Shown: piece by piece, positions 54,001 to 60,000 of the stretch | How positions within the stretch are numbered: position 1 is the stretch's first letter | Layout: each line of letters begins with the position of its first letter | Assembly: GCF_057098645.1 (NCBI RefSeq) | Contig: NZ_CM169472.1 | Direction: 5' to 3' (one strand) | DNA: 64,000 nucleotides | Program-made: the position numbers

Positions 54001-57000
54001 GTAACAATAACCGGGATGCCCAACGAGCGAGCGTGCTCAACCCCCGCATGGGAGGAAATACCGTTATCCACCGTGACAATTAACTGCGCGCCACGGGCAT
54101 GGGCCTGATCGACCACTTCCGGGCTTAAGCCGTAACCGTCTTCGAAACGGTTTGGTACCAGGTAGTCGATATTGCTGCAACCAAGCGAGCGCATCGCCAG
54201 CACGCTTAGAGCCGTGCTGGTCGCGCCGTCGGCGTCGAAATCACCGACCACAATAATCCGCGTTCCTTCGCGAAAAGCGTTGTAAAGGATCTCAACGGCC
54301 TTTTCGACGCCGCTCAGTTGCTGCCAGGGCAACATACCTTTAACACTGCGTTCCAGTTCTTGCGCACTGCGTACTCCCCGGCTGGCGTATAAACGGCGCA
54401 GCAAGGGAGGCAATTCAGCGGGCAAGTCTGCCGTTTCATCGACTTCACGGCGACGAAGTTGTATCTGTTGTTTCACGCGAATTATTTACCGCTGGTCATT
54501 TTTTGGTGTTCGTCGAGGAATTCTTTCATCTCTTTCGGCGGCTGGTAACCCGGAACAAGTGTGCCATTGCTCAGCACAACTGCCGGAGTACCGCTAACGC
54601 CAAGCTGGACGCCAAGTGCGTAATGGTCGGCAATATCCACGTCGCAACTGGCTGGTGCGACGCTTTTACCTGCCATCACATCATCAAACGCTTTGTTTTT
54701 GTCTTTCGCACACCAGATAGCTTTCATTTCTTTCTCAGCATCGCTATCCAGCCCCTGGCGCGGGAAAGCAAGATAACGCACGGTGATCCCCAGCGCGTTG
54801 TAGTCTGCCATTTGCTCATGCAGTTTGTGGCAGTAACCACAGGTAATATCAGTAAACACGGTGATGACGTGTTTTTCCTGCGGCGCTTTATAAACGATCA
54901 TCTCTTTTTCAAGCGCATTCAACTGCTTTAACAGCATCTTATTGGTGACATTGACCGGAGCCGTGCCACTAACGTCATACATTGGCCCCTGAATGATATG
55001 TTTACCATCATCGGTGATGTACAACACGCCGCTGTTAGTCAGAACTGTCTTCATGCCAGCTACGGGCGCGGGCTGAATATCGCTGCTTTTAATGCCCATT
55101 TTGGCTAACGTTTGCTGAATTGCCGCGTCATCAGCCTGAGCAAAGCCTGAAAACGCCGCTAACAAAGTAAACAACATAAAACCTTTCTTCATAAATCTTC
55201 CCGTTCTTTTCAGACATCACGCCCGCGGGTGATGCTGTTGATGAAGTTGCCGCAGACGCTCGGTAGCGACATGCGTATAAATTTGCGTGGTGGAGAGATC
55301 GCTGTGGCCCAGTAGCATCTGCACCACGCGTAAATCCGCACCATGATTTAATAAATGAGTGGCAAAAGCGTGACGCAACACATGCGGTGACAGCTTTTCG
55401 CTGTCGATACCCGCCAGCACGGCATAATGTTTAATACGGTGCCAGAAGGTCTGTCGCGTCATCTGCTGCGCACGCTGGCTGGGAAACAACACGTCAATTG
55501 ACACACCATTCAACAGCCACGGACGCCCATGTTCCAGATAGGTTTCCAGCCAGTAAACCGCCTCTTCACCTAACGGCACCAGGCGCTCTTTGTTGCCTTT
55601 ACCAATGACCCGCACTACGCCCTGACGCAGGCTGATATCACTCATTGTCAGCCCGACCAGTTCAGAGACACGCAGCCCGGTAGCATACAACACTTCAAGC
55701 ATGGCTTTATCGCGTAGCTCCAGTGGCTGATCAATTAATGGTGCCTGTAATAAACGTTCGACCTGCGCTTCGCTTAAATCTTTTGGCAAACGCTGGGGCA
55801 ATTTCGGTGAAGCGAGATGCGCACTGGGATCATCTTCACGAAACTTTTCGCGATAAAGATACTGGAACAATCGGCGCACTGCACTCAGCAAACGCGCTGA
55901 GCTGGTGGCTTTATACCCGCCCTCCAGCCGTTCTGCCAGTAATGCCTGTAAATCGTCACTTTGCGCCGTCGCCAGCGTCAACCCGCGGTGATGCAACCAC
56001 TCCACCATCATTGACAGATCGCGACGGTAAGCGTTCAACGTATTTTCAGCCAGATTTTTTTCCAGCCACAGAGCATCAAGAAACTGCTCGATGCGTGCCA
56101 GATCCTGTTTCACTTGCGCCCCTTATGGTCACTCATTTGATCCATTATGCCTTATTGTGCCGTGACTAAAGCGATTCTGATACACTAGCCGCAAAAGCCA
56201 CAGCAGAATCGAGAAGCTTACGTTATGAATATGGGTCTTTTTTACGGTTCCAGCACCTGTTACACCGAAATGGCGGCAGAAAAAATCCGCGATATTATCG
56301 GCCCAGAACTGGTGACCTTACATAACCTCAAGGACGACTCCCCGAAATTAATGGAGCAGTACGATGTGCTCATTCTGGGTATCCCGACCTGGGATTTTGG
56401 TGAAATCCAGGAAGACTGGGAAGCCGTCTGGGATCAGCTCGACGACCTGAACCTCGAAGGTAAAATTGTTGCGCTGTATGGGCTTGGCGATCAACTGGGA
56501 TACGGCGAGTGGTTCCTCGATGCGCTCGGTATGCTGCATGACAAACTCTCGACCAAAGGCGTAAAGTTCGTCGGCTACTGGCCAACGGAAGGATATGAAT
56601 TTACCAGCCCGAAACCGGTGATTGCTGACGGGCAACTGTTCGTGGGTCTGGCGCTGGATGAAACTAACCAGTATGACCTTAGCGACGAGCGTATTCAGAG
56701 CTGGTGCGAGCAAATCCTCAACGAAATGGCAGAGCATTACGCCTGATGTCACTGACGGCTTAGCACATATGCTTTGCCGTCATCTTTATCTTTGCGTCTC
56801 TTGTTGCAACAATATCCGCCGTAAATCCCGCCATTCGGCTTCGTCCATGCTGTCGGCTGCCAGCCATAAATGTTGCCGTTTACCGCCATCAGAACGTAAA
56901 CGCAGCATCATGCCGCTCTTAATCATCCACGGTGCTTTGACGATGCTCCACTCCTGCCCTTGCCAACGCAAACGCCCGTCCATCAACAAGCGAATTTCCC

Positions 57001-60000
57001 CCTGGCGAGCATTAATACGCCGCTGGCTGCGAACGCAATCAAACACCACCAGCGAAAGTAACACCATCCATAACGGGGTGTAACTGAGCGGCCAGGGCAT
57101 GAGTAAAATAACAGCGGCAACCAGCCCATGAATCAGCAAGGAAAGCCACTGTGCGCGCCAGGAGACGCGCAAATCAGATTGCCACAGGACCACGTTCCCG
57201 GTTCCGTGTCTGGATGAGTCGGACCATCATTTCCAGTTCTGCATCGGCCGGTTTACCGTGATTCATCAGCCAGTTAAACAGGTCTGGATCGTCACATTCC
57301 AGCAGACGAATAAAGATGCGTTTTTCGTCATCGCTTAAGCTGTCGTACTCATGTTCGAAAAACGGCATGATTGAAATATCGAGTTCGCGCATACCACGGC
57401 GGCATGCCCAATGAATGCGGGCTTTGTTGTTAATGTCCATCTTCTTCCTGTCTCACGAAAATCCAGTACCCCGCTATTGTAACGTGTTTTTCGACTTCTT
57501 TTACGGGAATATCAGTAAACACAATCGCGATCGCGAAATTAATTCACAACAATTCAAGGGCTTCATTTTTTTGGAAGTCGCCTCGCAGAAGGCACAGATC
57601 GCGTAGTGAAAGCACTTGCATTGCCTCATAGCTCTTTTACCATTAGTTATTAATACGCCGTTAAGCAACTCAGGACTCTATTATGGCTTTTACACCTTTT
57701 CCTCCACGTCAGCCTACGGCTTCTGCCCGTTTACCGCTGACGCTGATGACGCTTGATGACTGGGCGCTTGCCACCATTACTGGCGCGGACAGCGAAAAAT
57801 ATATGCAGGGCCAGGTGACAGCAGATGTCAGCCAGATGACAGAAAATCAGCACCTGCTCGCCGCCCATTGCGACGCCAAAGGTAAAATGTGGAGCAATTT
57901 ACGTCTGTTCCGCGACGGCGATGGCTTTGCGTGGATTGAACGGCGCAGCGTGCGTGAACCGCAGCTGACTGAACTGAAAAAATATGCGGTGTTCTCTAAA
58001 GTGACCTTCGCGCCAGACGACGAGCGTGTGCTGCTTGGTGTTGCCGGTTTTCAGGCGCGCGCCGCGCTGGCCAAGCTCTTTAGTGAACTACCTTCGAGAG
58101 AAAAACAGGTAGTTAAAGAAGGCGCGACCACTTTGCTATGGTTTGAACACCCGGCAGAACGTTTCCTGATCGTAACCGATGAAGCTACTGCCAATATGCT
58201 GACCGATAAACTGCGCGGTGAAGCGGAACTGAACAATAGCCAACAGTGGCTGGCATTAAACATTGAAGCGGGTTTCCCGGTGATTGATGCCGCGAACAGC
58301 GGGCAGTTTATCCCACAGGCGACCAATCTCCAGGCGCTGGGCGGTATCAGCTTTAAGAAAGGCTGTTATACCGGACAAGAGATGGTGGCGCGAGCAAAAT
58401 TCCGTGGTGCCAACAAACGCGCGCTCTGGTTGCTGACAGGTAGTGCCAGCCGACTGCCGGAAGCTGGTGAAGATTTAGAGCTGAAAATGGGCGAGAACTG
58501 GCGTCGCACCGGTACGGTGCTGGCTGCGGTAAAACTGGAAGATGGTCAGGTCGTGGTACAGGTCGTCATGAATAACGATATGGAACCGGACAGCATCTTC
58601 CGCGTGCGTGACGATGCGAATACATTGCATATCGAGCCGCTGCCGTATTCGCTCGAAGAGTAAATCTCTGTGTCGCATCAGGCATTTATCGCCTGATGCG
58701 ACGCTGGCGCGTCTTATCAGGCCTACAAAGGCATACCCATTACGCCTGCCCAATATACAAATAGATCGCCAGAAAGTGGCACACACTACCGCCGAGCACG
58801 AAGCCGTGCCAGATGGCATGGTTGTATGGAATGCGTTTGCAGACGTAGAAAATCACCCCGAGCGAATAAACCACGCCGCCTACCGCCAGTAAGGTAACGC
58901 TGCCCGCCGCGAGCTTAACTGCCATTTCATAAATTACCACCAGCGACAGCCAGCCCATCGCCAGATAAGTCACCAGAGATAAAATTTTGAATCGGTGCGC
59001 GATGGTCAGTTTGAACAGAATCCCCAGCAATGCCAGGCTCCAGATAACAATCATCAACCCGCGCGCTAACGGAGAATCCAGCCCCACCAGCAAAAACGGC
59101 GTGTAGGTTCCGGCAATCAACAGGTAAATAGCGCAATGGTCAAATTTCTTCAGCCACATTTTTGCCCGTTGATGAGGAATGGCGTGATAGAGCGTCGAAG
59201 CGAGGAACAGCAGGATCATACTGCCGCCATACAGGCTGTAGCTGGTTATCGCTGTGGCGCTGGCATTGAGATCCACCGCCTGAACCAGTAGCAACACCAG
59301 CCCAACGATACCAAACACCAACCCAATGCCGTGACTGACGCTGTTGGCAATTTCCTCTGCCAGCGAATATCCCTGCTTAACGAGGGGCTTCTGAACCATA
59401 ACTTACTCCGGAGAAACGTACACGCACATGTATACCTCTCCAGCGTAACTGAGAATAGTTCCAGTGAACACCTGTTAGCTAAAATAAATTCTGATTTGAG
59501 ACTAATCTCCTAAAAATCATGAAATTAAATGCGAAATTTCAACTAACAGGCGTGAGTTCAATTTAAAGACATTTAAATTCAATCACATAAAACTGTGTCT
59601 GACCGGGATAGATGTCGGCAATGACCTTTTTCAGTTCAGTCAGGGTCATATTTTCCTGCTCTGCATGTTTTTCCGTCAGCGTATCCAGCGTTACGGTTGA
59701 GGTTGCGGTGACTTCAATCGTGCAAAAATAACCGTCATCTTCAAAACGCCCGACACGAAGCACATCACCCGTTTTGAAGTGCGATTCAGACTCGTCGCGG
59801 ATGGTGATGGTTTTACGCCCAGCCAGAATGTCATCCTGGAAACGTTGAAAAAAAGTGATGTCGTTTGGCTGCATGGTACTATTTCCTGTAAGAATTGACT
59901 CATCTGGAGCCTATGATAGTGAAAAAACTCACCTTACCGAAAGATTTCTTATGGGGCGGCGCAGTTGCCGCTCATCAGGTCGAAGGCGGCTGGAACAAAG

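Follow-up and report, generated by a model that had tools for sequence, protein, structure and literature searches.

The 64,000-nucleotide stretch of DNA analysed here (NCBI RefSeq assembly GCF_057098645.1, contig NZ_CM169472.1; hereafter the window) carries two overlapping minus-strand genes, sdhE and ygfX, which an earlier note on this sequence had labelled a type IV toxin-antitoxin (TA) system. The pair is the ordinary sdhE-ygfX operon of Escherichia coli, already known. We consider it probable that this is a housekeeping bicistronic operon of the Enterobacteriaceae, in which SdhE acts as an assembly factor and YgfX as a translationally coupled membrane adaptor. For a well-annotated core operon the discovery value is small, and the overlap is a conserved, ordinary way of linking the expression of two genes. 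Open reading frame (ORF) calls place the two genes and their shared segment as follows.

57174–57440, minus strand: sdhE (ygfY, cptB; b2897 in K-12), ATG start, 88 amino acids.
56786–57193, minus strand: ygfX (cptA; b2896 in K-12), GTG start, 135 amino acids.
57174–57193, minus strand: dual-coding overlap of 20 nt, encoding the (R)GPVAI-stop C-terminus of SdhE and the MVLWQS(D) N-terminus of YgfX.

The ygfX frame is +1 relative to sdhE within the overlap, and the junction reads CGTGGTCCTGTGGCAATCTGA. The shared stretch is exactly 20 nt long, as the earlier note had stated. In Pfam, SdhE matches PF03937 (Sdh5; E 5e-26; 90.8 bits, cutoff 27), and it matches the NCBIfam equivalog NF008130 over residues 1–88 of 88 (198.4 bits, cutoff 120). 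YgfX matches the Pfam family PF07254 (Cpta_toxin, formerly DUF1434; E 6.6e-50, 169.1 bits against a cutoff of 27.3), with residues 2–131 covering model positions 1–132 of 133. Judged by the PF03937 and PF07254 matches, neither gene is a chance ORF. Both proteins are 100% identical at the amino-acid level to the b2897 and b2896 products of E. coli K-12, which confirms the gene identities and is also the outcome of the alignment to characterised cptA/cptB (ygfX/ygfY) that had been proposed as a check. The nucleotide differences from K-12, one in sdhE and three in ygfX, are all synonymous. RefSeq gives identical boundaries for both genes in the matching O145 chromosome and in K-12 MG1655, and the region 56500–57800 is a 100% match to E. 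coli O145:H28 strains. A 1.3-kb query around the pair, searched against complete E. coli genomes at ≥95% identity, found it in 5425 of 5426 genomes with a median of one copy, in line with the earlier description of the locus as conserved core genome.

SdhE is securely identified as the flavin adenine dinucleotide (FAD) assembly factor that serves SdhA and FrdA, because the equivalog match is accompanied by the RGxxE motif and by solved complexes with both partners. The motif (R15-G16-M17-R18-E19) is invariant in 13 Enterobacterales sequences. The protein matches the PDB entries 1x6i, 6c12 and 6b58 with E values of 1e-51 to 1e-59; 1X6I is E. coli YgfY/SdhE alone, 6C12 is the protein bound to SdhA, and 6B58 is the protein bound to FrdA. 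In the FrdA-SdhE intermediate, G16 of the SdhE RGxxE motif hydrogen-bonds FrdA H44, the histidine that becomes FAD-linked, and SdhE brings about a shift of the active site that favours covalent flavinylation (PMC5773532). The identical E. coli SdhE helps both SdhA and FrdA to acquire covalently attached FAD (PMC5773532, PMC5293155), and an E. coli ygfY mutant is viable, has no succinate dehydrogenase (SDH) activity and does not grow on succinate (PMC5293155). On these grounds, together with the K-12 identity, the earlier assignment of SdhE as a flavinylation factor stands.

The overlap depends on where ygfX begins, and several observations support the GTG start. An in-frame stop 11 codons 5′ of the GTG closes the reading frame, the N-terminal pattern M-x-x-W-Q..L-R-x-S is kept in 40 diverse homologues at identities down to 26%, and residues 2–8 form a confident β-strand in the structure model. 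Two other starts were ruled out. The TTG at codon 8, just past the sdhE stop, is not conserved, other species having TTA, CTT or CTG there; a start at the ATG of codon 32 would cost the protein its conserved N-terminal strand and first transmembrane helix.

Conservation of the junction was followed across species by an SdhE-alignment search with one genome per species, from which the best 80 loci were kept. Patterns back-translated from the YgfX alignment contained no stretch conserved enough to serve, and the SdhE alignment was used instead. All 80 loci are Enterobacteriaceae, from Escherichia to Shimwellia, and in every one of them a YgfX-family ORF lies directly 3′ of sdhE on the same strand. 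The GTG is found 20 nt before the sdhE stop wherever the ORF call yields a 267-nt sdhE (57 of 57 loci); in the other 23, the junction sequence is the same and only the mechanical longest-ORF call differs. The junction is nearly invariant across the 80 species. Third-codon-position identity in sdhE averages 0.96 within the overlap vs 0.69 outside it, and values of 0.88–1.00 extend into codons 78–82, just upstream of the ygfX GTG, which delimits one further element.

57194–57209, minus strand: conserved stretch inside sdhE (codons 78–82, ACACGGAAYCGGGAAC), marked by third-position identity, likely the ygfX translation-initiation region.

The suppression of synonymous change in the overlap and in the ~15 nt upstream of it points to dual coding plus an embedded translation-initiation region. 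A related pattern is visible at the protein level. The C-terminal RGPVA tail of SdhE (codons 84–88, 57177–57191) is invariant in 13 Enterobacterales genera; distant SdhE homologues without a ygfX overlap, for example the one at locus L086, do not share it. The 6b58 chain from the FrdA complex matches SdhE query residues 6–84 only. The conserved tail falls on the overlapped start of ygfX, and its conservation may be due to ygfX instead of to SdhE function.

A second set comprised eight loci, representatives of the most distant YgfX clusters (26–36% identity) that were traced to their contigs. In seven of the eight, ygfX lies directly 3′ of sdhE, beside a divergent ygfZ. Six overlap sdhE, by 20, 26, 14, 20, 20 and 26 nt, and one has a 30-nt gap; a 37-nt gap has been reported for Shewanella (PMC8621075). 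Across both sets, ygfX is immediately downstream of sdhE in 87 of the 88 loci examined. With seven of eight distant homologues linked, six of them overlapping, and gaps of 30 and 37 nt, the comparison of loci indicates that the pairing is ancient and that overlap is the common state, not a universal one. An SdhE-YgfX fusion by programmed frameshift was rejected: the database "fusions" P0144 (151 aa) and P0134 (133 aa) are truncated products of single-base assembly indels.

The ygfX initiation site sits inside translated sdhE and has a weak Shine-Dalgarno-like GGAA/GGGAA; the best anti-Shine-Dalgarno duplex upstream of the GTG reaches −4.3 kcal/mol and is poorly spaced. Given the weak Shine-Dalgarno sequence, the GTG start and the 20-nt overlap, ygfX translation probably depends on that of sdhE and is kept below it. 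The two genes are co-transcribed in Serratia (PMC5042078) and Shewanella (PMC8621075). Translational coupling, as the earlier note had proposed, is plausible and fits both the geometry and the conservation of the junction.

The second protein of the operon has three predicted parts.

YgfX residues 2–8: β-strand.
YgfX residues ~14–34 and 39–56: transmembrane hairpin with a short periplasmic PWPLSY loop.
YgfX residues 65–134: cytoplasmic PH-like domain.

The earlier assignment had hinged on the 135-aa ORF having membrane segments and similarity to YgfX. Two hydrophobic segments are present (~14–34 and 39–56), with Kyte-Doolittle peaks of 2.04 (residues 14–32) and 1.76 (residues 36–54), alongside the PF07254 match given above. 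The PWPLSY loop of the hairpin is uncharged and a very basic stretch follows, the C-terminal part containing 16 lysines and arginines. Because of this uncharged loop and the basic stretch behind the hairpin, both hairpin ends would be cytoplasmic, and YgfX is predicted to be an inner-membrane protein with a two-helix hairpin and both termini in the cytoplasm. The AlphaFold2 model, built on 40 diverse homologues and confident (pLDDT 94.8), contains strand 2–8, helices 12–31 and 36–62, six strands within 65–112 and a C-terminal helix at 118–134. This arrangement is a seven-stranded antiparallel β-sandwich closed at one end by a C-terminal α-helix, the hallmark of a PH-like fold. The model thus predicts a PH-like domain in which the transmembrane hairpin comes between strands 1 and 2; the fold is of the adaptor type and not that of an enzyme or pore.

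Bacterial PH (bPH) Pfam families gave no match to the YgfX sequence even at E ≤ 10, and a sequence relation to these families was rejected. No solved structure was found for any YgfX relative, nor was a PH-like fold for YgfX mentioned in the literature searched; the prediction is nevertheless one that anyone could read off a public model. YgfX forms a small family of 133 clusters at 50% identity (E ≤ 1e-3). Residues W34 and D114 are conserved, and we take them to correspond to the periplasmic Trp and cytoplasmic Asp reported to be functionally critical in Serratia YgfX. YgfX has been described as a membrane protein interacting with SdhE in Serratia (PMC5042078, PMC3985639), and a native membrane pull-down from E. 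coli with YidC/YibN contained it (PMC11997395).

Taken together, the operon probably works as follows. SdhE, a small soluble protein, docks on SdhA and FrdA; the RGxxE surface makes the contact, G16 touching the histidine that ligates FAD, and covalent FAD attachment is promoted. This flavinylation activates succinate dehydrogenase and fumarate reductase. Ribosomes ending sdhE would re-initiate at the ygfX GTG, or open it, tying YgfX output to that of SdhE and holding it below. YgfX, anchored in the membrane and associating with itself, would act as an adaptor and bind SdhE at the membrane site where Complex II is put together, and the filamentation or "toxin" effect would be a consequence of YgfX overexpression, not its native function. 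The present analysis itself established the gene identities, the overlap with its conservation, the membrane hairpin, the prediction of a PH-like fold and the core, non-mobile nature of the locus. The SdhE biochemistry, YgfX-SdhE binding and the conflicting findings on toxicity come from the literature; the translational coupling and the adaptor role we infer here. More specifically, we tentatively suggest that YgfX is not a toxin at all and that, as a PH-like membrane adaptor, it may tether or regulate SdhE during maturation of Complex II and fumarate reductase, the effects on FtsZ and MreB arising artefactually when a sticky adaptor domain is overexpressed. This narrower proposal is somewhat less probable than its negation. 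The predicted fold makes the SdhE-binding membrane adaptor a concrete, testable idea, and one that could help settle a question on which the Inouye and Fineran laboratories have disagreed for a decade.

Several points weigh against parts of this account. The PH-like fold is a prediction, and a Foldseek search of the full-length YgfX model against the PDB gave no significant match. The RNA fold at the sdhE-ygfX junction is not more stable than shuffled sequence (z-score −0.6). A bacterial two-hybrid assay in Shewanella detected no YgfX-YgfY interaction (PMC8621075). Deletion of ygfX caused no growth defect in Shewanella (PMC8621075) and no swimming phenotype in Serratia, unlike deletion of sdhE (PMC5042078). 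The deletions in these two organisms thus do not point to a requirement of YgfX for flavinylation. To these must be added two reports of TA activity and one genome in which ygfX stands apart from sdhE, which bear most directly on the rival explanations.

The first rival is the one carried by the earlier label, a genuine type IV TA system CptA/CptB: membrane-bound YgfX would block FtsZ and MreB polymerisation and arrest division, SdhE would moonlight as an antitoxin at these targets, and the overlap would keep the toxin-to-antitoxin ratio low. The source of the label is Masuda 2012; as relayed by later papers, E. coli YgfX overexpression in that study blocks division and growth, YgfX binds FtsZ and MreB, and YgfY rescues, the proteins being identical to those encoded here (PMC8621075, PMC5086665). 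The homologous CptBA-like pair of A. baumannii has likewise been reported as a TA system (PMC8132199). The gene arrangement would also suit such a system, being bicistronic with the "antitoxin" first and having an overlap that would keep the downstream product scarce, and PF07254 is a named toxin family in Pfam. In McNeil 2013, YgfX overexpression reportedly altered cell shape, and cell-division proteins are said to have been among the candidate partners.

Experiments in two other genera speak against this rival. In Serratia, the Fineran group detected no TA phenotype yet saw direct binding of YgfX to SdhE (PMC3985639), and direct binding contradicts the type IV definition, in which the antitoxin acts on the target of the toxin. 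In Shewanella, the pair fails every TA criterion tested: ygfY can be deleted, an additional ygfX deletion does not rescue the ygfY-deletion defect, and YgfX is not toxic, leaves cell shape unchanged and binds neither FtsZ nor MreB (PMC8621075). The viability of the E. coli ygfY knockout (PMC5293155) points the same way, the function of SdhE is structurally proven and unrelated, and the predicted fold of YgfX would be that of an adaptor domain.

The genomic behaviour of the locus leads in the same direction. TA modules are typically, although not by strict definition, accessory and patchy, and often multi-copy or mobile, and sdhE-ygfX displays none of these traits. In an independent survey, only four "toxin" groups reached a frequency of at least 80% of isolates in all E. 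coli sequence types studied, and CptA_toxin was one of them. Synteny is deep: divergent ygfZ, then sdhE-ygfX, then convergent fldB-xerD-dsbC-recJ are kept as a block even with YgfX homologues of 27–36% identity. Purifying selection is strong, with dN/dS of ~0.03–0.10 for ygfX vs 0.01–0.06 for sdhE, approximate values since synonymous sites are saturated between genera. Mobile copies of ygfX were considered and rejected, as 12 plasmid-database and 2 phage-database matches proved to be mislabelled chromosomes or chromosome fragments. Records mislabelled as "plasmids", such as NZ_CP114989.1 (locus L093), have prfB, lysS, recJ and xerD along with sdhE-ygfX, as is the case in a 51-kb example. A single-copy core locus that is vertically inherited and strongly purified, has no real plasmid or phage copies and includes a deletable "antitoxin" argues against a typical TA module.

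One locus departs from the usual gene order. In a 1.5-Mb reduced genome (GCA_038960095.1, CP152425.1), locus L090:2419-2944 encodes the YgfX homologue P0107 (30% identity), 82 nt from a divergent ygfZ. No sdhE occurs within this 5.4-kb locus, and ygfX is kept. The ygfX homologue converges on an L-aspartate oxidase-like gene (FAD_binding_2 + Succ_DH_flav_C); the two overlap slightly, and the latter is followed by rpoE and rseA. If SdhE were an obligatory antitoxin, a ygfX with no sdhE next to it would be difficult to explain; the locus also means that YgfX may have an SdhE-independent role, which tells against an adaptor devoted to SdhE.

On balance, we regard a genuine type IV TA system as unlikely. 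The label cannot be upheld without qualification: it goes back to one E. coli overexpression study and is set against negative results in Serratia and Shewanella and a core, non-mobile locus. Automated TA catalogues and Pfam label YgfX a toxin and SdhE an antitoxin, and caution is warranted here, as the comparative evidence and the published negatives favour a respiratory-assembly operon.

Under a second rival, what YgfX does has nothing to do with SdhE and lies, for instance, in membrane or cell-envelope homeostasis or in cell division, the linkage being operon history and the overlap neutral compaction. The ygfX deletions without an SDH-type phenotype (PMC8621075, PMC5042078), the co-purification in YidC/YibN membrane pull-downs (PMC11997395) and the solitary ygfX of L090 would all agree with it. 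SdhE is moreover widespread without YgfX, which has only its 133 clusters, whereas PF03937 reaches structures from Vibrio and Neisseria. PF03937 extends to alpha- and beta-proteobacteria and mitochondria. We nonetheless consider this rival very improbable, since ygfX adjoins sdhE in 87 of 88 loci at identities down to 26–36%, a linkage so persistent that it usually reflects functional coupling, since the two proteins interact directly in Serratia (PMC5042078, PMC3985639), and since the constraint on the junction is stronger than neutral compaction predicts.

Having set these rivals beside the housekeeping operon that we favour, we turn to the flanks of the pair, where four further elements were noted.

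57444–57449, minus strand: Shine-Dalgarno-like AGGAAG of sdhE, identified in the sequence; the CAGGAA motif is conserved across genera.
57476–57481, minus strand: TACAAT, candidate −10 hexamer of an sdhE-ygfX promoter, in the block AAAACACGTTACAAT (57476–57490) kept across 12 genera, with a weak −35.
57616–57621 and 57638–57643, plus strand: TTGCAT and TACCAT with a 16-nt spacer, candidate ygfZ-side promoter, put forward on cross-genus conservation.
56753–56782, strand not assigned: stable hairpin within the 39 nt that separate the stops of the convergent genes ygfX and fldB (RNA fold −23 kcal/mol, z-score −4.9).

The sdhE-ygfZ intergenic region is 242 nt long, and its blocks are conserved across 12 enterobacterial genera in a manner resembling divergent promoters. 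Simple promoter and terminator scans of the locus produced no convincing call, the promoter scan missing both the sdhE and the ygfZ side, and Rfam gave no match at the junction or its flanks even at E ≤ 1. The hairpin at 56753–56782 is followed by a T-rich tail on the plus (fldB) strand only, and the terminator scan made no call there. Because the tail is confined to the fldB strand, the hairpin is assigned mainly to fldB, of which it is probably a candidate terminator, perhaps a bidirectional one.

Elsewhere in the window, features at ~5.8–13.44 kb are those annotated in the matching O145 genome (locus L094), with coordinates within ~35 nt of those of the window. A decayed ETT2 type III secretion cluster occupies ~5.8–12.9 kb; it retains an intact sctN alongside a frameshifted EscV-family gene, an sctC interrupted by an internal stop and a partial secretion-protein fragment. 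At ~13.26–13.44 kb, on the minus strand, lies a gene for a 59-aa GhoT/OrtT-family membrane toxin with no annotated partner, adjoining a glycoside hydrolase family 15 gene and a tRNA-Gly (15322–15392, minus strand).

When the operon is compared with known systems, there is no difference of substance from sdhE-ygfX of E. coli K-12, which has the same coordinates, the same 20-nt overlap and the same neighbours fldB, xerD, ygfZ and trhA. The sdhEygfX operon of Serratia sp. ATCC 39006 is similar in gene order, in co-transcription and in a membrane YgfX that binds SdhE, without TA behaviour; the prodigiosin and FlhDC/RsmA regulation phenotypes are particular to Serratia. Within the SdhE/Sdh5/SDHAF2 family (PF03937; 1X6I, 6C12, 6B58), the window SdhE is a full-length match with the RGxxE motif and is identical to the crystallised E. 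coli protein.

Comparing the predicted YgfX domain with PH-superfold adaptors (PH, Ran-binding, EVH1 and PTB domains) reveals identities of 8–18%, a similarity at the level of the fold and not family membership. Unlike in these adaptors, strand 1 of YgfX is split from strand 2 by the inserted transmembrane hairpin.

The defining E. coli type IV TA system, CbtA/CbeA (YeeV/YeeU), resembles the pair in that its toxin is likewise reported to act against FtsZ and MreB, and reviews class both pairs as type IV. However, there are marked differences in genomic setting and in the proteins themselves. Whereas CbtA/CbeA belongs to cryptic prophages and is accessory and multi-copy, sdhE-ygfX is a single-copy core locus. 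CbtA is soluble; YgfX is a membrane protein, is predicted to contain a PH-like domain and is unrelated in sequence to CbtA. The "antitoxin" paired with YgfX serves as an assembly factor in respiration.

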